Shown here: positions 4,448 through 30,319 of the stretch, piece after piece
Layout of the letters: each line of letters opens with the position of its first letter
Numbering within the stretch: the stretch's first letter is position 1
Assembly (NCBI GenBank): GCA_002345745.1
Contig: DDWQ01000005.1
Coordinates: 3,707-67,706 of the forward strand
Direction: 5' to 3'
From: Candidatus Moranbacteria bacterium UBA2282
GTDB lineage: Bacteria; Patescibacteriota; Minisyncoccia; Moranbacterales; UBA2206
DNA length: 64,000 bases
Translations under genes and position numbers: made by a program
Notes under the pieces: generated by a model
Told to the model about the DNA's origin: nothing
The model's input: the letters and a program-made list of their open reading frames with translations, nothing else
The model's database searches: none

Positions 4448-4636
4448 ATGGCAAATAAAGTAATAACATTTTTGCAGGAAGCTCGGACTGAATTAACAAG
4501 AGTCAATTGGCCAAGCAAAAAACAAACAATAAATTACACAATCCTTGTCATTGCGATTAGTGTTGTGGGAGCTATTTTTCTCGGAAGTTTAGACTATTTT
4601 TTTAGTTATTTATTAAAAACATTTATTATAAAATAA
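4448..4636 (+). CDS. secE: Preprotein translocase subunit SecE
   Basis: 62-aa protein with a single C-terminal TM helix, located immediately upstream of nusG (conserved secE-nusG-rplK-rplA synteny). Confidence 0.8.
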   Translation: MANKVITFLQEARTELTRVNWPSKKQTINYTILVIAISVVGAIFLGSLDYFFSYLLKTFIIK

Positions 4637-4637
4637 T

Positions 4638-5183
4638 ATGGCCAAACAAACTCAACATCATGGGAGAGCATGGTATGTAATTCACACCTATAGTGGATAT
4701 GAAGACAATGTTGCTCGCAATTTGAAACAAAGAATTGAATCAATGGATATGCAGGATTTGATTTTTGATGTAATGGTTCCAATTGAAAAGAAAATTAAAA
4801 TTAAAACTGGAAAAAGAACAGTTGTGGAAGAGAAAATTTACCCCGGATATGTTCTAGTTGAGATGATGGTAACTGACGCATCTTGGTATGTCGTGCGAAA
4901 CACTCCAAATGTCACAGGTTTCATTGGTCTTGGTACAACACCAACTCCAGTTGATCCAGCTGAGATTGAAATGTTAAAGAAAAGGATGGGTGTGGCTGAA
5001 CCAAAATACAAAATTGATGTTAAAGTCGGTGATTCTATTAAAGTTATCGATGGACCATTCAAGGATTTTGATGCCAAGGTTGATGAGGTTGATGATGCTA
5101 AGGGTAGAGTTAAAGTATTGGTCTCTATTTTTGGAAGAGAAACCCCAGTGGAATTGGATTTCCTACAGATACATAAATTATAA
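4638..5183 (+). CDS. nusG: Transcription termination/antitermination factor NusG
   Basis: 181 aa with an NGN domain start (WYVIHTYSGYE) and a C-terminal KOW-like region (KVGDSIKVIDGPFKDF). Sits in the secE-nusG-rplK synteny. Confidence 0.9.
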   Translation: MAKQTQHHGRAWYVIHTYSGYEDNVARNLKQRIESMDMQDLIFDVMVPIEKKIKIKTGKRTVVEEKIYPGYVLVEMMVTDASWYVVRNTPNVTGFIGLGTTPTPVDPAEIEMLKKRMGVAEPKYKIDVKVGDSIKVIDGPFKDFDAKVDEVDDAKGRVKVLVSIFGRETPVELDFLQIHKL

Positions 5184-7301: not shown

Positions 7302-7874
7302 ATGACAGGAATAAAAAAGGTTATAAAAACATCAAGACCAAATTGGGATGAAACATTTATGATGCTTGCTTTGACATTAGCTAAGCGAGCAGCTTGCAAA
7401 TATCATGAGATTGCTTCAGTTTTTGTGGATGAAGACCACAAGATAATTGCTACAGGCTATAATGGTCCAACTCGAGGTGATGTGCATTGTTTGGAGGTAG
7501 GTTGTGCTAAGGTGGATGGTGATCCAGTGACAAAAAAATTAAAAAGATGTCGTGGTGCACACAGCGAAATCAATGCCATTATGAATGCGGGGAATCCAGC
7601 AAAGCTCAAGGGTTCAACTTTGTATGTTACTGGTTCACCTTGTTATGATTGTATGAAGTCATTAAACAATGTTGGTGTGAAAAGGATTGTGTTTTTTGAA
7701 GAATATAAGCGAATGGCAGCTGGTAATGGAGCAGAGGAAGTTGAATTGGATGAGGTTGCAGAACTTTGCCAAAGAAGCGGGATTGCGTTGACGAAATTCG
7801 AGGGCGATATGAGTCATTTTGAAAGCATATTAAATAAAGATAAAAATATTTCATCAAGTTGTTCCACTTGTTAA
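7302..7874 (+). CDS. Deoxycytidylate (dCMP) deaminase
   Basis: CDA-fold zinc motifs HSEINAI and PCYDCMK. Confidence 0.85.
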   Translation: MTGIKKVIKTSRPNWDETFMMLALTLAKRAACKYHEIASVFVDEDHKIIATGYNGPTRGDVHCLEVGCAKVDGDPVTKKLKRCRGAHSEINAIMNAGNPAKLKGSTLYVTGSPCYDCMKSLNNVGVKRIVFFEEYKRMAAGNGAEEVELDEVAELCQRSGIALTKFEGDMSHFESILNKDKNISSSCSTC

Positions 7875-10472: not shown

Positions 10473-11942
10473 ATGACAAAATACATCCCAGTAATTGGCA
10501 TGGAAATCCATGTTGAGCTAAAGACAAAATCAAAAATGTTTTGCAGTTGCAAAAATGGTTTGGGTATGGAAACTGAACCCAACGTGAACATCTGTCCTGT
10601 CTGCACGGCACAACCCGGAACCTTGCCAGTGGCAAATGCACAGGCGATTGAATTTGTGCAAAAAGCAGGACTAGCGCTAAATTGCAAGATTGCGGAAAAT
10701 TCTAAATTTGATCGCAAAAACTATTTTTATCCAGATATCCCGAAAGGCTATCAGATTTCGCAATATGATCAGCCATTGTGTGGTTTGGGTCACATTCAAA
10801 TTGAAGATCGGGAAATTGGTATCACCAGAATTCATATGGAGGAGGATACTGGCAAGCTAGTGCATCCGAAGGGCGCTGATCATTCCTTGGTTGACTTTAA
10901 TCGTGCTGGTGTGCCTTTGATGGAATTGGTGACTGAGCCTGATATTGAAACGGGCAAGGAAGCGAGATTGTTTTGCCAGAAGTTGCAACAAATTTTTCGC
11001 TATTTGGAAATTTCTGATGCAGATATGGAAAAGGGGCATATGCGTTGCGAGGTGAACATCTCTTTGCACAAAGAGGGTGAAGAAAAATTGAGTGGCACCA
11101 AAGCGGAAATAAAAAATCTGAATTCTTTTCGTGTGGTGGAAAAAGCGGTTGACTATGAAATTTTGCGACAAACAGAGATTCTAGAAAAAGGTGAAAAAGT
11201 TATTCAAGAAACAATGGGTTGGGATGAAGCGCGTGGCGTAACTGTGACACAACGAAAAAAAGAATCCGCCCATGACTATCGCTATTTTCCAGAACCAGAT
11301 ATTCCGCCAATGCGATTTGCTGTTGAATATGTGGAAAATTTACGGCGACATTTGCCAGAATTGCCAGATGCTAAAGCGAAGAGGTTTGTTGAGGAATATA
11401 ATCTATCACCAGAGAATGTCAGCTTGATAACTAGCGATAGGGACTTAGCAAAATATTTTGAACAAGTTGTTTCGGAACTGCAGGAAAAAAAGCAGAGTGG
11501 GGAAGTAAAAGCAGAAGAAGCAAAGCTTATTAAATTAGCTGCAAACTATTTCGTTAGTGAACTGCAGAAACATTTAGTGAAGAATAATCAACAAATTTCT
11601 GATGTTAAGATTAGTGCAGAAAATTATGCCGAGCTGATTGGGCTTTTAGCAGACGGCATTATAAATTCCAGTGCCGGTCAAATTGTCTTAGAGGAAATGT
11701 ATGCCACCGGTGGTGACCCTTCGCAAATTATTGAAGCGAAAAATTTAGCGCAAATGGATGACTCTGGGGAACTTGAAAAAATTGTAGCAGAAGTTTTGGC
11801 GAAAAATCAAAAATCAGTGGATGATTTCAAGGCTGGTAAGCAAAATGCACTGCAATTTTTGATGGGGCAAGTTATGTCGGCATCGAAGGGGAAAGCGAAT
11901 CCTAAAATGGTAATAGATTCATTGAAAAATAAATTAGGGTAA
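10473..11942 (+). CDS. gatB: Asp-tRNA(Asn)/Glu-tRNA(Gln) amidotransferase subunit B
   Basis: 489 aa. N-terminal IPVIGMEIHVELKT...FCSC and C-terminal GatB/YqeY domain. Confidence 0.9.
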   Translation: MTKYIPVIGMEIHVELKTKSKMFCSCKNGLGMETEPNVNICPVCTAQPGTLPVANAQAIEFVQKAGLALNCKIAENSKFDRKNYFYPDIPKGYQISQYDQPLCGLGHIQIEDREIGITRIHMEEDTGKLVHPKGADHSLVDFNRAGVPLMELVTEPDIETGKEARLFCQKLQQIFRYLEISDADMEKGHMRCEVNISLHKEGEEKLSGTKAEIKNLNSFRVVEKAVDYEILRQTEILEKGEKVIQETMGWDEARGVTVTQRKKESAHDYRYFPEPDIPPMRFAVEYVENLRRHLPELPDAKAKRFVEEYNLSPENVSLITSDRDLAKYFEQVVSELQEKKQSGEVKAEEAKLIKLAANYFVSELQKHLVKNNQQISDVKISAENYAELIGLLADGIINSSAGQIVLEEMYATGGDPSQIIEAKNLAQMDDSGELEKIVAEVLAKNQKSVDDFKAGKQNALQFLMGQVMSASKGKANPKMVIDSLKNKLG

Positions 11943-11968
11943 AAATTTTTAAGTATTAAGAAAAAAAT

Positions 11969-12280
11969 ATGGAAGGAATGCAATTTTCAGTAGCTGAAAT
12001 TAAAAAACCAATCCAAGAATCTGGATATAGGAGTGTTTGGGATAGGGTTTCCGAAAGCGCTCTTCAGATATTGCAAAAAGATAGAAATCTTGAAAATGAT
12101 CCAGCTCTTTTAACTAGGGTGGAAGAAATTTTAAGCGACCCATCTTTTAAAGAAAAAGTAACTCAAATTTGGACTGAACAAGTTATGAAAAAAGGCGGTG
12201 TTGACAGTGATCCGAAAAAACAAGATGAGCTATGGGCAAACGGACTAGCTATCAGGATAAAAGATATGATTGATAATTAG
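11969..12280 (+). CDS. Hypothetical protein
   Basis: 103-aa ORF 26 nt downstream of gatB. No recognisable motif. Confidence 0.35.
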   Translation: MEGMQFSVAEIKKPIQESGYRSVWDRVSESALQILQKDRNLENDPALLTRVEEILSDPSFKEKVTQIWTEQVMKKGGVDSDPKKQDELWANGLAIRIKDMIDN

Positions 12281-12329
12281 TTTAGCCCGTCTTTATTAAA
12301 AAGGGATTGGAGAAAATCTCAGTTTTTAA

Positions 12330-13316
12330 TTATTTCATAAACTTCGCCACTTCTTTTTGCATATCGGAATATTTTTCTAGCCAGATGATTCGCTTGTCTT
12401 TGGAAAACCAAGTCATCTGGCGTTTGGCGTAATCTTTTTCCGCCAGATAGACTTTTTCGTAGAGCTCTTCTAGTATGATTTTCTTTTGCAAGTATTCCGG
12501 CATCCAAAAATAGCCCAAGCCGAAGCTCTGGATTTTTTCCCAACTCAATCCTTGTCGGTGGAGTTTTTCCGTTTCTGCTAGCATTCCATCGCTCCAGCGT
12601 GCATCTAGACGTGCTTTGATTCTGGCGTGCAGGGTTTCTTTCGGTACGGAGACCCCGATTTGCAAAAATTGGTATTTGGTATTTGGTATTTGGTATTTTG
12701 TATCTGGAACATGTCCGAGTGATCCGCAAATTTCGATAGCTCTGATTAAACGAACTTTATTTTTAGCATCAATATCCTTTGCGCGTCTTGGGTCGAGTTT
12801 TTTTAATCGAGAAAATAATTCTTCTGTTGATTCTTTGTCTAATTCTTTACGCAACTGCCAATCTGGTTCAACTTCCGGATAAGCGATGTTGTCCACAATC
12901 GATTTGATCCAGAAACCGGTGCCACCGCACAAAATCGGCAGCTTGCCACGGCGCAAAATGTCTGCGATAACTTTATCTGCTTGTTGCTTAAACTCAGCAG
13001 CGCTGAAAGTGTCTTGAGGATTAACAATATCAATCATATAATGCGGAATGCCTTCAGACATAAAAATATCTTTTGTATTTTGTATCTTGTATTTTGTATC
13101 TTGTTTGGTGCTTGGTGTTTGGTGTTTGATGTTTGCATCCCTGATGACTTTACCAGTGCCTATGTCCATTCCACGATAAATCTGCCGTGAATCCACGGAC
13201 ACGATTTCACCATCAAATTCTCGAGCAAGTTTAATCGCCACTGCGGATTTTCCGGCTGAAGTTGGACCTAATATCACAACAATTTTGTTTGATTGTATTT
13301 TTTTGATAGATGTCAT
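12330..13316 (-). CDS. miaA: tRNA dimethylallyltransferase MiaA, carrying two in-frame heptamer-repeat insertions
   Basis: P-loop ILGPTSAGKSAVAIKLA and SVDSRQIYRGMDIGTGK motifs. Extra peptide tracts HQTPSTKQDTKYKIQNTKD and TKYQIPNTKYQ are encoded by 7-nt tandem repeats. Confidence 0.85.
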   Translation of the reverse strand: MTSIKKIQSNKIVVILGPTSAGKSAVAIKLAREFDGEIVSVDSRQIYRGMDIGTGKVIRDANIKHQTPSTKQDTKYKIQNTKDIFMSEGIPHYMIDIVNPQDTFSAAEFKQQADKVIADILRRGKLPILCGGTGFWIKSIVDNIAYPEVEPDWQLRKELDKESTEELFSRLKKLDPRRAKDIDAKNKVRLIRAIEICGSLGHVPDTKYQIPNTKYQFLQIGVSVPKETLHARIKARLDARWSDGMLAETEKLHRQGLSWEKIQSFGLGYFWMPEYLQKKIILEELYEKVYLAEKDYAKRQMTWFSKDKRIIWLEKYSDMQKEVAKFMK

Positions 13317-22962: not shown

Positions 22963-25365
22963 GTGTGCAAAATAAAATTTATGAAAAAAATAAAAAAGAT
23001 TATTTGTTCTAAAAAAAATCTAAAACGAGATATCAGTATCATCACACTTTCTTTGTTGTTGGCGGTCTCAGTTGTCAAAGCTGGCAACTTGGATTCCATT
23101 AGCAGTCCGAGTGCTACGGGATATACCTTGACCGATATCTATCAAAGATTGACAACCAATCAAAGTGCAAATGACAGCGAACATATTTTTTCACCGTTAG
23201 CTGATCCGTCCGCTAGCTTTCATACATTAAAAGAAATTTATGAATCCATTCCAACTATTGAAGCGAGCAAAGTTAAATTAGGCACAGATTATTTGGGAAT
23301 TTCTGGAACTCTTTTACCAAGTGGAGGGACAACTGATGCTGGCAATGTGCTAAGTGGCAAAACTTTTTTTGGCAATAATCAAACTGATTGGACTTTGCAA
23401 ACTGGATCAATGCCTAACATTGGACAACAAGTTTTGACTCCTGGAATTGTCGATCAAATCATTACTCTCGGTTATCACGATGGCACTGGAAAAGTTGTCG
23501 GTGACACTGACTTAATTTCTGGCAATATCAGAAGCGGAATCAATCTTTTTGGAATAGACGGTGATTCTGACGTGGTGGACACATCATCAGGAACGGCAAT
23601 TGCTAATGAATTGGTGTCAGGAAAAAAAGCGTGGGTTGGTGGGGTTGAACTTACTGGCATGTTAGCGAATATTGGACAGCAAATTCTCACCCCTGGAATA
23701 ATAAATCAGACAATTACTTCAGGATATCATAATGGTACAGGATATGTTTTAGGTGACACTGAGTTGATTTCAACTAACATTAAAAGCGGAGTAAATATTT
23801 TCGGAGTTGCTGGTGATTCTAATGTGGTCGACACTTCTTCGGGAGATGCTGTCGCGGGAAACTTGTTGTCCGGGAAAAAAGCTTGGGTGGACGGTGCAGA
23901 AGTCACGGGAAATTTTGCTTCGCAAGAAAAAACCGCAACCACTGAAGGCGAGCAAATAACGCCAGACTCTGGTAATTGGCTGTCCAAAGTTACAATAGCA
24001 ATAACAAATTTAATTACGGGAAATATTAAAAAATCAGTCACGGTTGGTGGTGTGGCAGGAACTTATTCAGGTTTTCCGGGAACTGGTTGGACACCTAATG
24101 GGTCTGGCGATGGTTCAACTGCACTCACTCAAACTATTTGTGAAGCGCAGGGTGCCAATTGGAAATGGTTTGAAGATGCCAACGGAGATGGCGATACAAT
24201 TGATCCAGAAGATGGAATTTGCATTAAGACTGCAACTATCACATCAGATTCTTGGAATGGTGCGGAACAAATGAATGGCTATGTTTTGGCTGACACAACT
24301 ATGGCCTCTGGAACTTCAAATTCCGTGACAGTTGCTGGCACACCATGGGTAGCAGATCGCTATAAAAATGAAATTGTGAAAATCATCTCCGGAACAGCTT
24401 CGCCTTGTTGGGGAATTGTGAAAACCAACACCACAAACACCATCACAGTTTTTGGCTCTTGGTTGCAATCAACCTATGCGGCTTGTGCGACAACTCCAGA
24501 TGCCACTTCACACATTCAAGTTTTTGATGATAATAAATTCGACAATTCTTTTATTGGAGATTATTCTTGTGCTGGAAATTTTCCAAGCGGAACAGTGACA
24601 CTTGGATCGTATCCCACAAGCGGCACAATTGCTTTGGCAGTAACGGATTGCTATGACGGCAAAAGGGATTTATTACCTAATGAAACTGATCGAGCGGTGC
24701 TCTCTGGCACAGTAACGACGACCGATGCCACTTCAGTGACTGATTCTGATCAAGCAATGTCAGTTAACGTCTGGATAGGACAAAAAGTTTTGATTACAGG
24801 CGGAACAGGCAGTGGTTCATATGGAGTTGTGGAAAGCAACACTGGAACAAAATTGACGGTCGCTAGTTGGAGCGGAACAGCACCTGATGTTGCATCAACT
24901 TTCAAAATTATTTATATTTTGCCTCGGTCAGCTTATGTTGGTACGGCAGGAATGTCACAAATTATTGGTGGCACAAGTGATGATGTCAAAGCTGGTCAAG
25001 GACCACTTGCGGAGAAACAACTAAAAGAATGGGTCGGCACAAAACTTCCAACCTCGCAAGATTTTTTCGGTTTTTGTGGTGCCACTTCTGGTGATGCTGA
25101 TGGAACTGCTGGTGGCAGCACATATAGTTCCTCTGGTGCTTCGACTAATAGCACAATTGGAAATTATGGATCTAATGTTGGTAGAGGAAAAAACGCTGCG
25201 CCGAATGATGAATATATGGATCTTTCTAATAGCGGTTCTTGGGAGTGGCTTTCAGAGCAGCACAGTGGCAGTGGTGCTCGGGTTGCCGGCAATAGCGCTT
25301 GCTCGTACTTCGGTAGTTCTAATGTCAACAGTGGCTATCGGTTCAGAGCGGTGTTTCGCCCCTAA
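22963..25365 (+). CDS. DGR target protein: secreted/anchored protein with three tandem ~80-aa repeats and a C-terminal C-type-lectin-like variable region
   Basis: N-terminal signal/anchor. Repeated blocks NIGQQ(V/I)LTPGI...GD(S/T)(D/N)VVDTSSG...SGKKAWV. C-terminus ...NSACSYFGSSNVNSGYRFRAVFRP contains the VR that matches the TR downstream. Confidence 0.85.
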   Translation: MCKIKFMKKIKKIICSKKNLKRDISIITLSLLLAVSVVKAGNLDSISSPSATGYTLTDIYQRLTTNQSANDSEHIFSPLADPSASFHTLKEIYESIPTIEASKVKLGTDYLGISGTLLPSGGTTDAGNVLSGKTFFGNNQTDWTLQTGSMPNIGQQVLTPGIVDQIITLGYHDGTGKVVGDTDLISGNIRSGINLFGIDGDSDVVDTSSGTAIANELVSGKKAWVGGVELTGMLANIGQQILTPGIINQTITSGYHNGTGYVLGDTELISTNIKSGVNIFGVAGDSNVVDTSSGDAVAGNLLSGKKAWVDGAEVTGNFASQEKTATTEGEQITPDSGNWLSKVTIAITNLITGNIKKSVTVGGVAGTYSGFPGTGWTPNGSGDGSTALTQTICEAQGANWKWFEDANGDGDTIDPEDGICIKTATITSDSWNGAEQMNGYVLADTTMASGTSNSVTVAGTPWVADRYKNEIVKIISGTASPCWGIVKTNTTNTITVFGSWLQSTYAACATTPDATSHIQVFDDNKFDNSFIGDYSCAGNFPSGTVTLGSYPTSGTIALAVTDCYDGKRDLLPNETDRAVLSGTVTTTDATSVTDSDQAMSVNVWIGQKVLITGGTGSGSYGVVESNTGTKLTVASWSGTAPDVASTFKIIYILPRSAYVGTAGMSQIIGGTSDDVKAGQGPLAEKQLKEWVGTKLPTSQDFFGFCGATSGDADGTAGGSTYSSSGASTNSTIGNYGSNVGRGKNAAPNDEYMDLSNSGSWEWLSEQHSGSGARVAGNSACSYFGSSNVNSGYRFRAVFRP

Positions 25366-25366
25366 G
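25247..25366 (+). repeat. DGR variable repeat (VR), last 39 codons plus stop of the target gene
   Basis: 120-bp match to 26470-26589 with 17 mismatches, every one at a TR adenine (TR AAT/AAC codons versus VR AGT/GGC/GGT/TTC etc.). Confidence 0.9.
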
Positions 25367-25415
25367 TTTTTTCCCGTCAAAATATTTGATGATTTGGTGA
25401 TTTGGATAATTTGAG

Positions 25416-25540
25416 TACCGCGAATTACGCAGATTTAAACTAATTCCGCTAATTTAAATACCGCGAATTACGCAGATTTAAACTAATCCCGCTAATTTAA
25501 ATACCGCGAATTACGCAGATTTAAACTAATTCCGCTAATT
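25416..25540 (+). repeat. Tandem direct repeat, 43-bp unit x ~3 (TACCGCGAATTACGCAGATTTAAACTAATTCCGCTAATTTAAA)
   Basis: Copies start at 25416, 25459 and 25502. One C/T difference between copies. The third copy is truncated at the GxxExxY start codon. Confidence 0.9.
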
Positions 25541-25924
25541 ATGACAGAAAAATTACTGCACAAAGAACTTTTGTATAGGTTGGTAGGCGCCGCGATGGAT
25601 GTACATAAAATTTTAGGACCTGGATTTCTTGAAGGAACTTATCAAAAAGCTTATGAAAAGGAACTAGGGATCCAGAAAATTACTTTTATCTCCCAGAAGA
25701 GAATTAAAATATTCTATAAAGGTATTGATTTGGGATTCCAGGTGCTAGATTTGATTGTGGATAATAAGATAATTATAGAAATAAAAGCTGTTTCCGAAAT
25801 TTTACCAATTCATCAAGCTCAGCTAATATCTTATTTGAAAGCGACCGAGTATGAACTTGGAATTTTGATAAACTTTGGTGCTAAAAGTTTACAGTATAAA
25901 AGATTGGTATTTACAAAAAATTAG
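25541..25924 (+). CDS. GxxExxY-family protein (PD-(D/E)XK-like; family often found in 23S rRNA intervening sequences)
   Basis: 127 aa with a GFLEGTY motif near the N-terminus and size typical of the family. Flanked upstream by 43-bp repeats and downstream by an inverted copy of the GCGAATTACGC core (GCGTAATTCGC at 25924-25934). Confidence 0.65.
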   Translation: MTEKLLHKELLYRLVGAAMDVHKILGPGFLEGTYQKAYEKELGIQKITFISQKRIKIFYKGIDLGFQVLDLIVDNKIIIEIKAVSEILPIHQAQLISYLKATEYELGILINFGAKSLQYKRLVFTKN

Positions 25925-25958
25925 CGTAATTCGCTTAAATTAGAATAATTCGCGTTAT

Positions 25959-26342
25959 ATGGCACGATACGAACATATCAAAATTTTCCAAGTAGCCTAT
26001 ATTTTGACAGTGGAGATTCATAAAGTTGCATCCAAATTCGGCAAAAAACACCGATATACTTTGGGTGAGAAAATAAAAAATCTTTGCAGTGATATGTTGG
26101 ATATGATCGTGGTGGCAAATGCAGCGACGGAAAAACAAGAATCTTTGAAAATGATTGACGCGCAACTGGAAAAAATCAGAATTCAATTGCGCATCGTGTA
26201 TGATCTGCGAATAATCAGTGCCGGACTGCTAGGCATTCTCAACAAACGCATTGAGGAAGTTGGTCGGCAACTTGGTGGGTGGCAGAAGTGGGCGGAAGAG
26301 GAAGCTTGTCCGTCCGCTCCTGCCAGAGTCTCTGTGGACTAA
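25959..26342 (+). CDS. avd: DGR accessory variability determinant (Avd)-like four-helix-bundle protein
   Basis: 127-aa basic helical protein. IFQVAYILTVEIHKVASKFGKKHRYTLGEKIKNLCSDMLDMIVVANAA resembles the PF05635/Avd family. Lies between VR and TR. Confidence 0.75.
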   Translation: MARYEHIKIFQVAYILTVEIHKVASKFGKKHRYTLGEKIKNLCSDMLDMIVVANAATEKQESLKMIDAQLEKIRIQLRIVYDLRIISAGLLGILNKRIEEVGRQLGGWQKWAEEEACPSAPARVSVD

Positions 26343-26469
26343 GGTCTCAGAGAGAGCGCAGAAGACGGGAATTACAGTCCGACTCACTGTTTTTGTAAAA
26401 CAGTATATTCGACAAAAGGCTTACACATTTTTTGTGATAGCTTCCGAATTTTGAAAGTAGACGGACAAT

Positions 26470-26589
26470 GGCTTTCAGAGCAGCACAATAACAATAATGC
26501 TCGGATAGCCGGCAATAACGCTTGCTCGAACTTCAATAATAATAATGTCAACAATGGCAATCGGTTCAGAGCGGTGTTTCGCCCCTAAG
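26470..26589 (+). repeat. DGR template repeat (TR), non-coding, rich in AAT/AAC
   Basis: Direct repeat of the VR. Contains adenines at all 17 variable positions. Ends 14 bp from the RT stop codon. Confidence 0.9.
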
Positions 26590-26603
26590 CAATTCCTGAA
26601 AAA

Positions 26604-27833
26604 TTAATTCTCATCCCACATAAAGTAGGCGTAGTTTTTGTCAGCCGGACGAAGATAGATTTTGAGAATGCCAAAATGTTTTTCATAGAGAGTTTTTCGG
26701 AGGCCAAAGCAATTGGCGTGCTTGAAAAATCCATAGGTGGAATTTAGGGAGGAAAAAATATGTTGAAAATCTTCCAAAAATTCCGGAAAAACTGAAAAGC
26801 GGTCATAAAAAATTTTGTCGCAGGCGCAAAGATGGTCATTTGGATCGAGCGAATTTAAAATTTTTTGGTTAAACTGCCAGAGAGTATTCTTTAGCTTTTT
26901 GACTGTTCCTCGGCGGATAAGTATGTGATCCGGTTTGGTGATATATCCGCAGAAATTGATGCCTTTGTCACATTGTTGCAAAACTTGTTTTTTTGGATGA
27001 AGTTTGAGTAGTAATTTTTTTTCAACAAACTGAGAAATTTCATCTCGCCAAAAAAGCAATTGTGTCTTGGAAGGATGAAGAAGCAGAAGATCGTCCATAT
27101 AGCGAAAGCTATGGGGGCATTTCAAAGTATGTTTGACAAACTGGTCTAGTTCATTGAGATACACATTAGCGAAGAATTGACTGGTCAGGTTGCCAATCGG
27201 CAATCCTTGGTGGCTGGGATTTCCAAAGAGCGATTTGTGCCTTGGAATTGAGCGTAATAATTTGATGTCGCCTTTAACACAATAGTTCAAAGTCGGATTT
27301 TGAAAAACAATTTTTTCCGTTAGCCACAAAATGTCCGGATTTCTGAGATGTTTTTGGATAATTGCAAATAGAATGCGCTTATCGATGCTCACAAAAAAAC
27401 TGCGAATGTCAACTTGCAGGTAGAATAATTTTGGGTCAATCGATTTTTTCAGATAGGCGATGGCTTTGTGTGCACCTTTTTCTTTTCGACAGGCATAGGA
27501 ATGAAAAACGAATTTTTTCTCCCAAATCGGTTCCAGATAGCTCACCAAAAGATGATGCACGATGCGGTCGCGAAAATCAGCCGCCCAGACTTCGCGTAGC
27601 TTTGGGTCAATAATAGCAAAACAGGTGTGTTTCCCAGGCTCATATGATTTATTTTTTAACTCGCGTTCTAATCGCAGCAGTTCCACTTCAAAATTCAATT
27701 CGAATTTAGCGGCATTGGTGGTGTGGCGTTTGGATTTCCGGCATTGATAATATGCTCGTAGAAGATTTTTAAAAGAGAAAATATCTCTCTCAGGCTGTGT
27801 CAATTTTTGTGCTTGAAAAAGTTTTTGTTTCAT
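26604..27833 (-). CDS. DGR reverse transcriptase
   Basis: 409 aa with FHSYACRKEKGAHKAI (DGR RT motif 2), QGLPIGNLTSQFFANVYL (IGxxxSQ motif 4) and YMDDLLLL (YxDD catalytic motif). Confidence 0.9.
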   Translation of the reverse strand: MKQKLFQAQKLTQPERDIFSFKNLLRAYYQCRKSKRHTTNAAKFELNFEVELLRLERELKNKSYEPGKHTCFAIIDPKLREVWAADFRDRIVHHLLVSYLEPIWEKKFVFHSYACRKEKGAHKAIAYLKKSIDPKLFYLQVDIRSFFVSIDKRILFAIIQKHLRNPDILWLTEKIVFQNPTLNYCVKGDIKLLRSIPRHKSLFGNPSHQGLPIGNLTSQFFANVYLNELDQFVKHTLKCPHSFRYMDDLLLLHPSKTQLLFWRDEISQFVEKKLLLKLHPKKQVLQQCDKGINFCGYITKPDHILIRRGTVKKLKNTLWQFNQKILNSLDPNDHLCACDKIFYDRFSVFPEFLEDFQHIFSSLNSTYGFFKHANCFGLRKTLYEKHFGILKIYLRPADKNYAYFMWDEN

Positions 27834-27897
27834 GGTATTATTTTAGCATGGATATCTTGCAGGTACTTTACTTTTAAATAAATAAATTTATAAAATT

Positions 27898-28299
27898 ATG
27901 ATTAGTGACGCTCGTTGGCGTGAGCGATTTGGAGATTATAAAAAAGCAGTCAGGCGTATGCAGGACGCTCTGAAAAAAGAATCATTTAGCGAGCTGGAGA
28001 AAGACGGTGTAATTCAAAGGTTTGAATTTACTTTTGAACTTGCGTGGAAAACATTAAAAGATTATTTGGAGGATCAAAGTTTCATCGATATTTCCAGTCC
28101 GAAAAAGGCCATCCGTAAAGCGTTCGAAAGTGGAACAATTGCAGATGGCAATATTTGGATTGAAATGCAAGAGGACAGAAATAGAATGTCGCATATATAT
28201 AATCAAAGCGAAAGTGAAAAGATATTTAAAAATATTAAAGATAAATATATGAAAGCTCTAAATGACTTAGTCATTGCGCTGGAAAAAGAACTCCAATGA
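27898..28299 (+). CDS. HEPN-domain protein of the nucleotidyltransferase-substrate-binding (HI0074-like) family; toxin-like
   Basis: 133 aa with the conserved R-x4-H motif (RNRMSHIY) near the C-terminus. 4-bp overlap with the downstream MNT gene. Confidence 0.7.
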   Translation: MISDARWRERFGDYKKAVRRMQDALKKESFSELEKDGVIQRFEFTFELAWKTLKDYLEDQSFIDISSPKKAIRKAFESGTIADGNIWIEMQEDRNRMSHIYNQSESEKIFKNIKDKYMKALNDLVIALEKELQ

Positions 28300-28598
28300 A
28301 ATTCGGACTGACTGAAAAAGAAATAATGCTGTTAGTAGGCGTGTTTGAAAAAACTCGCAATATAGAGAAAGTTTTTATTTATGGTTCACGCGTCAAAGGT
28401 AATTACAAAAAAACCTCCGATATTGATTTGGTAGTTTGTTTTGCTTATAATGTCAAAAAAAGCGTTGCTATGCTAAAATCAGAATTGGAAGATTTACCCA
28501 TAATTTATAGTATTGATATAATTGATGAAGAAGAAATTGAAGTTGGAAAATTCAAAAATGAATATGCTAGAACAAGGCAGGTTTTTTATATGAAGTAG
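28296..28598 (+). CDS. Minimal nucleotidyltransferase (MNT); antitoxin-like partner
   Basis: GSRVKGNYKKTSDIDLVV matches the GSx9-13Dx(D/E) polymerase-beta-type NTase motif. Confidence 0.75.
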   Translation: MKFGLTEKEIMLLVGVFEKTRNIEKVFIYGSRVKGNYKKTSDIDLVVCFAYNVKKSVAMLKSELEDLPIIYSIDIIDEEEIEVGKFKNEYARTRQVFYMK

Positions 28599-28612: not shown

Positions 28613-30319
28613 ATGGAAATTTTTAAAAAATATAAAGAAATAATTTTTCAGCAGATGAAATTTATTTTTATGAAAAACGGACGGGCGATTGTTTCGGCTA
28701 TTTTTGTTTTACTGATTGTTTCAAGCGTGACTATTTGGCACGCCTTAGCAACAGAAGCCACTAATATCAATTCTGAATCAAAATTTGCTTGGAGTGAAAA
28801 CACTGGCTGGTTGAATTTTGCATCAAGTAATGGTGGTGTGATGGTGACCGATACAAATATCTCCGGCTACATTTGGAGCGAGAATCTTGGTTGGATTTCA
28901 CTTAATTGTTCTAATAGCAACTCTTGTGCCGTTTCCAATTACGAGGTGGCTAATGATGGAGAGGGAAATTTGTCCGGCTTTGCTTGGAGTGACACTGTCG
29001 GCTGGATAAATTTTTCTCCAACAAACGGCGGAGTGAAAATAGATTCGGGAGGAATTTTTTCTGGTTATGCTTGGGGTGAAAATTTCGGTTGGATTGTTTT
29101 CAATTGTCAAGACTTGGATGTTTGCACAACTTCAGATTTCAAGGTCAAGACAACCTGGCTGCCCATAAGCGTGAGAAATCAAAATTCCGATGAAGAGCAA
29201 GATGGAGTGGAAGTCTTTGATGTTAATTTTTCCGCTACTGATGCAATGATAGTTATTAATTGGGACACTAATCATAATGCAGACAGTCATATTAGCTGGG
29301 GAACGGACAAAAATCTGGAAAAAGAAAAAAACAATAATAATAAAGAAGAGAAGCATCGAATTGTACTTCGGGACTTGGAATCAAATACAAAATATTATTT
29401 TCGCGTAAAATCAACAGATGGGAATGATAAATCCGATTCTTCAAGGATTTATTCCGTTTTGACTAAATCGCCATCCGCTATTTTTGCTAAACGCTCATAT
29501 CAAAATTTAGAACAGGAGAACTATGAGACGGTGGATATTCAAGTCTCTGATAGGAGCAAAAATGAGGAAAAGCTGGAAAGCTTAGTAGACACTTTAGTAA
29601 CTGTTCCGGAAAAAGTTGCGGAAAATATAGAACCAAGCCAAAAAAACAATTGGCTTTTTAGTAGCTTTTCTTTTATTAGCGAAAAAAGTAAGAATATCGC
29701 TTTCATTACTTGGAATGGAATAGCGTTTGTCTATAATGAGATTTATGTGGCTGTCATTGACGGGCAAAGGCAAATTGCTGGATTTATAATGGCAATAAAT
29801 GATCAGCTCGCCAGCGTCTATGAGTCGGCTATTTCCAAATTTAATAAAGAAAAAGCGACAGAAATCGCTAGACTAAAACAATCTAAATTTTTTACCACGC
29901 AGGTCTTTAGTCGAAATGAGAAGAAATTGCTAGCTGAAGTACGCTTCCAAATTTTGGATAAATCCGACAATCCTGTAGTTAATTTGGAAGCCACATTATT
30001 TTCTGATCCGCAAACAGCCGTCACTGATGATAATGGAGTAGCTTCTTTTAAGGATGTCCTTATTGGCTCACACACATTGGCTTTTGATTATCAGGGCGAA
30101 AATTTTGAGAAAAAAGTGTCTATTGCAGACACTGTGACTGATGAAGGAAAGGTGCGGGCAGAAGTGGTGGAGGTCAAGGCAGAAAAAGAAAAATTGGCTT
30201 GGTGGATGTGGACGGTAATGATTCTTCTGATTGTGACAGCATCTTTAGCAATATACTTTGCCAGAAAATATTATTTGCTAAAAATCGCAAAGGATGATAA
30301 ATTAGTTAGTAGTAAATAA
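28613..30319 (+). CDS. Membrane-anchored surface repeat protein (WSENxGWINF-type ~28-aa repeats, FN3-like domain, C-terminal TM anchor)
   Basis: N-terminal signal/anchor. Four repeats (WSENTGWLNFAS, WSENLGWISLNC, WSDTVGWINFSP, WGENFGWIVFNC). Segment ISWGTDKN...YYFRVKSTDGND. C-terminal hydrophobic helix followed by ARKYY. Confidence 0.55.
   Translation: MEIFKKYKEIIFQQMKFIFMKNGRAIVSAIFVLLIVSSVTIWHALATEATNINSESKFAWSENTGWLNFASSNGGVMVTDTNISGYIWSENLGWISLNCSNSNSCAVSNYEVANDGEGNLSGFAWSDTVGWINFSPTNGGVKIDSGGIFSGYAWGENFGWIVFNCQDLDVCTTSDFKVKTTWLPISVRNQNSDEEQDGVEVFDVNFSATDAMIVINWDTNHNADSHISWGTDKNLEKEKNNNNKEEKHRIVLRDLESNTKYYFRVKSTDGNDKSDSSRIYSVLTKSPSAIFAKRSYQNLEQENYETVDIQVSDRSKNEEKLESLVDTLVTVPEKVAENIEPSQKNNWLFSSFSFISEKSKNIAFITWNGIAFVYNEIYVAVIDGQRQIAGFIMAINDQLASVYESAISKFNKEKATEIARLKQSKFFTTQVFSRNEKKLLAEVRFQILDKSDNPVVNLEATLFSDPQTAVTDDNGVASFKDVLIGSHTLAFDYQGENFEKKVSIADTVTDEGKVRAEVVEVKAEKEKLAWWMWTVMILLIVTASLAIYFARKYYLLKIAKDDKLVSSK

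Follow-up and report, generated by a model that had tools for sequence, protein, structure and literature searches.

A convergent diversity-generating retroelement in a moranbacterial genome with a conserved RNA domain upstream of its template repeat

Introduction

Where does a diversity-generating retroelement (DGR) keep the RNA that its reverse transcriptase (RT) is to engage, when the RT gene runs head-on towards the template repeat (TR) and ends 14 bp from it? The question is raised by a locus of Candidatus Moranbacteria bacterium UBA2282, which lies in a stretch of 64,000 nucleotides (contig DDWQ01000005.1 of assembly GCA_002345745.1, positions 3,707 to 67,706 of the forward strand) referred to below as the window. 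How reverse transcription works in DGRs is known only from one phage element, in which an essential scaffold follows the template: in the Bordetella phage a segment of about 140 nt downstream of TR is essential, binds the accessory variability determinant (Avd) and supplies the priming adenosine (PMC6182149). An earlier note on the window, made from its letters alone, had called the layout atypical and reasoned that transcription of TR would run antisense into the 3' end of the RT gene. Here we describe a conserved, covarying RNA domain on the other side of TR and propose, as the probable explanation of the locus, an intact DGR whose RNA scaffold lies 5' of TR, circularly permuted, with a convergent RT.

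Results and discussion

An intact-looking element on two strands

The element is an intact-looking chromosomal DGR (Table 1). It consists of a target gene containing the variable repeat (VR), an inserted GxxExxY gene, avd, a structured non-coding RNA and TR, followed by the convergent RT gene. The open reading frames (ORFs) and the repeat alignment agree with the strands given in the earlier note, VR, avd and TR being on the plus strand and RT on the minus strand. The canonical order avd-TR-RT on a single strand (B1 of Wu et al. 2018) is therefore not seen here, RT being opposite and convergent. The distance of 14 bp from the end of TR to the RT stop codon (26604-26606) was likewise borne out by measurement of the gap (26590-26603), while the start of 26470 given in the note falls one base inside TR, which itself begins at 26469.

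TR and VR, which are offset by 1223, form an ungapped alignment of 121 nt, in which all 17 mismatches fall at TR adenines on the plus strand (12 A>G, four A>T and one A>C). Given 38 adenines in the 121-nt TR, the probability of this arising by chance is about 3e-9; inclusion of position 26468 adds an eighteenth mismatch, likewise at A. Sixteen of the 17 are at codon positions 1 or 2 of the target ORF, within which VR occupies the 3' extremity, and TR read in the VR frame (WLSEQHNNNNARIAGNNACSNFNNNNVNNGNRFRAVFRP*) is abundant in AAY (Asn) codons. Since A, not T, is the mismatched base on the plus strand, the template RNA is of plus sense, as the note had it, and RT is convergent on TR. The shared 3' end, which resembles an initiation of mutagenic homing (IMH) element, is a 27-mer, GGTTCAGAGCGGTGTTTCGCCCCTAAG, with exactly two copies in the window (25340-25366 and 26563-26589; none expected). 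The flanks of VR and TR diverge directly after it, again in keeping with the note. A hairpin after VR, which the note had also raised, did not materialize: folding of the post-VR sequence gave no GC-rich inverted repeat and only a weak A/T stem of -4.4 kcal/mol (z = -0.08), no better than shuffles.

RTs of the DGR type have an RVT_1 domain, a YxDD motif and (I/L/V)GxxxSQ in place of the QGxxxSP of group II introns. By domain and motifs the window RT is of this type: its translation carries LPIGNLTSQFF and FRYMDDLL (YMDD), and the motif columns are invariant among 26 homologues (alignment A1), although no NCBIfam model reaches its cut-off. Homologues of this RT number thousands in public databases, where one protein is identical to it, and the nearest named relatives come from metagenome-assembled genomes (MAGs) of Doudna-, Moran-, Falkow-, Nomura- and Saccharibacteria. 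Avd, a feature of most DGRs but not all, is present. The target protein has no sequence match in Pfam, NCBIfam or the PDB, and an AlphaFold model of its last 221 residues, made with 30 homologues, had a confidence (pLDDT) of 37 and was unusable for recognizing a C-type-lectin or immunoglobulin (Ig) fold. On the plus strand the GC skew is positive in 14 of the 16 4-kb bins of the window (1-64000), from which the target gene is probably co-directional with replication; this orientation has been reported to favour DGR editing in E. coli (PMC12875486).

A conserved RNA domain upstream of TR

For comparison we collected 160 loci encoding relatives of the RT, the named sources being mostly Patescibacteria MAGs and the more distant loci belonging to Desulfobacterota, Omnitrophota and others. 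Each locus was scanned for A-biased repeat pairs and, with a hidden Markov model, for avd, and was then assigned to a layout class. In relatives of every layout some 130-230 nt precede TR, and this spacer, 126 nt between avd and TR in the window, contains conserved motifs with visible compensatory changes among relatives. The conserved, covarying RNA domain of the window spans 26322-26468, beginning inside the 3' end of avd and filling the avd-TR spacer.

A covariance model, R1, was built from 19 convergent loci with the window's own sequence in the seed, and scores 92.6 bits in the window (E = 1.8e-20) at 26322-26476. Across the window and the 160 loci there are 71 matches. Wherever both R1 and TR were detected the match lies on the TR strand (45 of 45 loci), and in 43 of these 45 it ends between -17 and +52 nt from the TR start. 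The match precedes TR in convergent loci, in loci of the order RT-RNA-TR-avd (L009, L012, L013, L091 and L092), where the domain lies between RT and TR and avd comes after TR, and in the canonical order avd-RNA-TR-RT. Its constant companion across the gene orders is thus TR, and neither avd nor RT. A contig labelled as Saccharibacteria (L006) has two avd genes and two R1 matches (4453-5117 and 7319-7856; 105.5 and 42.6 bits), which suggests two template modules near one RT.

In the model-based alignment 91.5% of cells are paired, as against 63.5% in shuffles, with 299 double-change cells as against 91; the covariation score is 0.753, compared with 0.242 for shuffles and at most 0.18 when the partners are slid. 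P1, Y:Y' and P3 are each more than 92% paired and every one of their pairs covaries. MAFFT with RNAalifold alone gave only P1 and P3, Y:Y' and X:X' requiring alignment to the covariance model together with the cognate versus non-cognate test described below. An unconstrained fold of 26322-26600 has P1, X:X', Y:Y', P2 and P3/P4 in both the minimum free energy (MFE) and the centroid structures (z = -3.47). The window thus belongs with the R1-defined domain, having all of its helices in the folds and X:X' across TR. We regard the 5' RNA domain as well supported as a structure, and from it we infer the mechanism set out below. In the segment between P3 and Y' (about 26444-26456; alignment A2) many loci have a conserved CGGAG(A/G)A-like motif after P3, and in some, such as L098, the bases that follow show complementarity to the X region or to P1, a hint that the RNA may pair in another way or act as a switch.

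Two predicted helices that frame TR

Folding pairs strand X (CGGGAAUU) with X' (AAUUCCUG) across TR, and GUCCG of strand Y (from 26377) with CGGAC of Y', which ends 2 nt before TR. X and Y are spaced 1-3 nt apart. In relatives X' ends a median of 3.5 nt beyond the end of the TR/VR homology, and so occupies a TR-specific position at the 3' edge. The last conserved RNA element of the window stops at 26598, which leaves 5 nt to the RT stop codon.

These two pairings were assessed by a test free of model fitting, in which X or Y of a locus was combined in turn with the partner region of that locus and with those of other loci, and the duplex energies were compared. Over 19 loci, X with the TR 3' flank gave -8.24 kcal/mol for cognate and -5.91 kcal/mol for non-cognate combinations, and Y with the region before TR gave -11.88 and -9.61 kcal/mol, respectively; in each case none of 20000 permutations was at or below the observed value. 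Cross-controls in the same 19-locus test, in which X was set against the upstream region and Y against the 3' flank, gave no significant result. The result for X and the TR 3' flank holds both in 32 convergent elements (cognate -10.08, non-cognate -7.50 kcal/mol) and in 32 co-oriented elements (-9.28 and -7.87 kcal/mol), again with 0 of 20000 permutations.

Gene order among related DGRs

The A-bias scan of the 160 loci found TR/VR pairs in 105, the window's own included, of which 100 are distinct, and among these 100 the TR strand is opposite to RT in 37. The canonical arrangement, with TR upstream of RT and co-oriented, accounts for 58 of the distinct TRs, though for only nine of the 39 with an RT at least 46% identical to that of the window. 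The window's own layout, convergent with the TR 3' end no more than 75 nt from the RT stop and avd always beyond TR, is seen in 21 of the 100 and in 20 of the 39. The remainder are convergent with TR farther from RT (15 of 100; five of 39), co-oriented with TR downstream of RT (five; four) or divergent (one; one). The convergent abutting layout is thus the commonest among close relatives of the window RT, and the RTs of its 21 distinct loci are 37-69% identical to the window RT. Fourteen convergent loci without R1, in which avd lies between RT and TR (L023, L024, L027, L029, L036, L038, L050, L053, L056, L061, L095, L097, L115 and L116), have only about 190-450 nt from VR to TR.

The description of the layout as atypical therefore holds only against the Bordetella-phage order avd-TR-RT and fails among relatives. 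It is already on record that TR and RT may lie on different strands and that non-canonical orders dominate a set of DGRs from the candidate phyla radiation (CPR), the dominant one being B3, TR-(avd)-RT (Wu et al. 2018, PMC5758913); the order here is instead avd-TR-(RT). The gene order of the window is real but not new, and by itself adds little, the layout being routine in the lineage. What recurs in relatives of every layout is that TR adjoins RT, avd or a terminator-like hairpin. Even where the two are co-oriented, the TR of these relatives touches the RT start or runs into it, and the long spacer is again upstream.

Transcription around TR

A promoter and terminator scan of 25200-28400 found no site between avd and TR, on the minus strand upstream of RT or in the TR-RT gap, and site counts were no higher than in shuffles. 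The earlier note had proposed promoter prediction around 26340-26470 and 27834-27900 as a check; 27834-27897 contains no minus-strand sigma-70-like site. With no terminator in the TR-RT gap, read-through into RT is likely in the window. In six relatives (L001, at 4876-4910, L003, L018, L019, L090 and L120) the stretch from the 3' edge of TR (X') to the RT stop contains strong GC-rich hairpins of -17 to -40 kcal/mol, plausibly bidirectional terminators; such a hairpin is lacking in the window and at several other loci.

Comparison with known systems

In the phage ribonucleoprotein, spacer nucleotides Sp47-56 pair with the TR 3' end and Sp A56 primes; 2 nt further on, Sp59-70 pairs with an avd segment upstream of TR to form a 'stop' duplex, and TR is looped out between the template:primer and stop duplexes (Handa et al., bioRxiv 10.1101/2023.10.23.563531). 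X and Y of the window match this spacer strand in order, polarity, spacing and partners, but lie 5' of TR. As in phage BPP-1, TR would be looped out between adjacent duplexes of one contiguous strand, and the two elements also share a target with a 3' VR, Avd, TR, a DGR-type RT, adenine-specific differences and an IMH-like common 3' end. In BPP-1 (mtd-avd-TR-brt), however, all parts are co-oriented, whereas the window RT is on the other strand, and the spacing is reversed: the avd-TR and TR-brt gaps of BPP-1 are 0 and 144 nt, while the window has a structured avd-TR gap of 126 nt and a TR-RT gap of 14 nt. The window further differs in lacking a GC-rich inverted repeat after VR and in having an IMH and IMH* that are identical over 27 nt. 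The TR-brt gap of BPP-1 contains the Rfam family Phage_DGR (RF03022; 104.7 bits at 2750-2882), which has no match at E-values up to 10 in 25200-28000 of the window; conversely, the best match of R1 in BPP-1 scores 2 bits.

Retrons offer a second parallel. In their msr-msd RNA a strand 5' of the template pairs just 3' of the template (a1:a2), and an internal 2'-OH sits beside the template 3' end. The polarity of a1:a2 is the same as that proposed for X:X'. Retrons nevertheless belong to a different RT clade and have no Avd, adenine mutagenesis, VR or retrohoming, and their RT gene is normally downstream on the same transcript.

No curated Rfam family reaches its gathering level in the window or in 31 related loci, and none was found at E <= 0.05 in eight more. 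The nearest is a partial match of RT-7 (RF03028) to the P1 region (26322-26376; 24.2 bits, E = 0.005), whose first hairpin (GCCAGAGU-stem-GAGUGC) aligns to P1. This falls well below the gathering score of 116.8 and skips 146 of the 191 model positions, so that the domain is not a member of RT-7; nor was RT-7 seen at gathering level in the 31 loci or at E <= 0.05 in the other eight. RT-7 is itself described only as a motif near RT genes, speculated to be part of retrons or DGRs (Weinberg et al. 2017, PMC5737381). The nearest named relatives of the window RT come from CPR MAGs, like the CPR set of Wu et al. 2018 (PMC5758913), the text of which, supplements aside, does not mention RNA structure or a spacer. 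No description of a 5' scaffold was found in the literature searched, Paul et al. 2017 and the Wu et al. 2018 supplements lying outside that search, and the 5' domain appears to be an undescribed variant of DGR RNA.

A proposed mechanism and its alternatives

In the mechanism that we propose, avd and the RNA 26322-26598 would be transcribed together from the plus strand, and the RNA would fold so that TR loops out between the Y:Y' and X:X' helices. The X/Y strand and the rest of the scaffold would lie 5' of TR, joined through P2-P4, which amounts to a circular permutation with retron-like polarity. RT, made from its own minus-strand transcript, would join Avd on this RNA. Priming, which we infer to be from the 5' strand, would use a 2'-OH near the 3' end of X (about 26373-26376), and copying would begin at the TR 3' boundary (about 26589-26590), with misincorporation opposite adenines, until synthesis stopped at Y:Y'; the cDNA would then replace VR. 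Since only about 10 nt would be needed after TR, the RT gene could abut TR in either orientation. The functional RNA probably ends at 26598, before RT, which would make antisense read-through incidental and not required. The claim that TR is transcribed antisense into RT thus stands in part: in the window this is likely, there being no terminator in the gap, but it is seemingly not required, as the elements end at 26598 and the RT 3' codons show no added synonymous constraint.

Several points weigh against this reading. Its RNA ends, its priming site and its activity are predictions from sequence, and it is by topology, not by sequence similarity, that the junction is equated with that of the phage. 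The covariation counts were taken from an alignment fitted to the model, and P4 is weakly supported (62.7% paired). Nor is the RNA domain universal: R1 finds nothing in about 15 convergent loci whose avd lies between RT and TR, and such DGRs may use a different RNA. The scan found no promoter-like site for the TR RNA or for RT, and a terminator-like site is absent from the 14-bp gap. Finally, the four public contigs on which the same RT is found match the window at 100% identity, also in VR; these are assemblies of the same strain, in which VR is invariant and gives no sign of ongoing diversification, although consensus sequences may hide minority variants.

The RNA could instead be phage-like, the TR transcript running on into the antisense 3' end of RT, which would double as the spacer that binds Avd and RT and primes. 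The essential 140-nt segment after TR in the Bordetella phage (PMC6182149) argues for this, as does the missing TR-RT terminator, for want of which transcription in the window would yield this RNA, and the MFE fold of 26343-26760 has hairpins in its antisense-RT part. Yet the RT 3' codons of 17 convergent loci show no excess synonymous conservation (0.42-0.46, as against 0.43 overall), a test that an element conserved in structure only would escape at such divergence, which counts against our own reading. On this result a hidden RNA element antisense to the RT 3' end was dropped as a candidate. The strong GC hairpins before the RT stop in six relatives would end such an RNA, co-oriented relatives keep the long spacer upstream with TR against or over the RT start, Phage_DGR has no match in the window, and, save for 8 nt after TR, every conserved covarying element lies 5' of it. 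We therefore consider a phage-like 3' spacer improbable. A little less so, but still unlikely, is that the 5' domain is real without being a scaffold, serving as a 3' untranslated or stability element of avd, a regulatory RNA or a DNA site; the RT gene would then be free to take either orientation simply through the action of RT in trans. The overlap of P1 with the avd stop codon would fit such a role, and for the similar RT-7 Rfam records no more than an occurrence near RT genes (PMC5737381). Against it, the domain follows TR and not avd in the RT-RNA-TR-avd loci, and it is tied to the template by specific complementarity, that of X with the 3' edge of TR and that of Y with the 5' edge.

Least credible of all is a decaying or rearranged element, in which a recent inversion flipped RT, leaving a dead cassette with the A-to-N pattern as a relic. 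In favour of decay, VR is the same in all four public assemblies, and an unrelated gene bordered by repeats has entered the cassette between VR and avd. The layout, however, is shared by 21 distinct loci with RTs of only 37-69% identity and so is old and maintained; it was on this conservation across divergent loci that recent inversion or pseudogenization was rejected. In addition, the RT, avd and target ORFs are intact, with the catalytic and DGR-type motifs of RT in place, TR retains AAY codons, VR departs from it at A sites only and the RNA domain scores as highly as stated above. An intact DGR with a 5' scaffold and a convergent RT accordingly remains the explanation that we think probable. 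Its extension is more tentative and, in our judgement, possible though short of probable: that a large DGR lineage, which takes in many Patescibacteria as well as relatives among the Desulfobacterota, Omnitrophota and other groups, relies on a circularly permuted RNA with the priming and stop strand and the scaffold 5' of TR, about 10 nt after TR, retron-like priming from an internal 2'-OH and an RT free to lie on either strand.

Insertions and neighbouring genes

Between VR and avd, three 43-nt tandem repeats (25407-25540) precede a GxxExxY / PDDEXK_3 ORF of 127 aa (25541-25924), and a single inverted copy of the repeat follows at 25918-25958; there are no further copies in the window. Relatives of the same layout have only about 40-60 nt from VR to avd, so that the GxxExxY region looks like a small mobile insertion into the cassette. 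At L105 (1582-1900, minus strand) another small ORF, GIY-YIG-like by eye, lies between avd and the RNA domain and is absent from the near-identical L101, making this a second case of a small nuclease-type gene landing inside such DGR cassettes.

On the far side of RT, across the 64-bp gap, a toxin-antitoxin-like pair is divergent from it (27898-28598), comprising a HepT-like / nucleotidyltransferase (NTase)-substrate-binding gene and a Pol-beta-type nucleotidyltransferase gene that overlap by 4 nt. Beyond these, 28613-30319 encodes a membrane-anchored protein of 568 aa in which 'F(A)WSENxGWI(N)F' units recur and which also has an Fn3 / purple-acid-phosphatase-N-like domain. Among the related loci, L022 has at 11615-12869 a 16S rRNA match that covers the whole model in only 871 nt, with an adjoining match to group II intron D1-D4; this MAG probably has an interrupted or oddly assembled rRNA gene.

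Table 1. Parts of the DGR cassette and of its RNA, in window positions
Feature	Positions	Strand	Basis and remarks
DGR target gene, 800 aa	22963-25365	+	ORF list; same 800-aa gene called on public contigs
VR	25246-25366	+	last 39 codons and stop of target ORF; ends 1 nt beyond stop codon
IMH-like 3' end of VR	25340-25366	+	exact 27-mer, identical to TR 3' end
Probable insertion between VR and avd	25407-25958	+	tandem repeats, ORF and inverted repeat copy
avd, 127 aa	25959-26342	+	Pfam bAvd, 3.8e-19; NCBIfam DivGenRetAVD, 82.2 bits (cut-off 80)
P1 hairpin (GCCAGAGU-stem-GAGAGCGC)	26322-26359	+	avd stop codon in loop; six stem pairs covary, 97.7% of cells paired; in MFE
Strand X (CGGGAAUU), proposed primer-strand equivalent	26366-26373	+	pairs with X'; MFE and centroid folds; cognate duplex tests
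Strand Y (GUCCGAC), proposed stop-duplex equivalent	26377-26383	+	helix 3: eight pairs, all with double changes, 92.5% paired
P2 hairpin	26386-26404	+	folds; variable in sequence and length among relatives, counterpart seen by eye
P3/P4 (outer stem, UAC, inner hairpin, GAU, outer stem return)	26417-26443	+	helix 4: seven pairs, all with double changes, 92.2% paired; RNAalifold
Strand Y'	26460-26466	+	ends 2 nt before TR; pairs with Y
TR, 38 adenines	26469-26589	+	last 27 nt (26563-26589) are the IMH*-like end
Strand X' (AAUUCCUG)	26591-26598	+	inside 14-bp TR-RT gap; absent after VR; pairs with X
RT, 409 aa	26604-27833	-	convergent on TR; RVT_1, 1.1e-14
RT/HepT-like intergenic region, 64 bp	27834-27897		putative RT promoter region: the promoter would have to lie here

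Conclusions

If this large and environmentally abundant lineage does retain the three-strand junction while using a scaffold before the template, then the junction and not the linear order of the parts would be the conserved core of the DGR mechanism. The model yields a concrete and falsifiable prediction of the priming site. The RNA module 26322-26598 would be a compact template cassette, complete in itself and open to testing and engineering apart from the RT. DGR annotation and RNA surveys should in that case cover both sides of TR, since surveys confined to the downstream side would miss this class.

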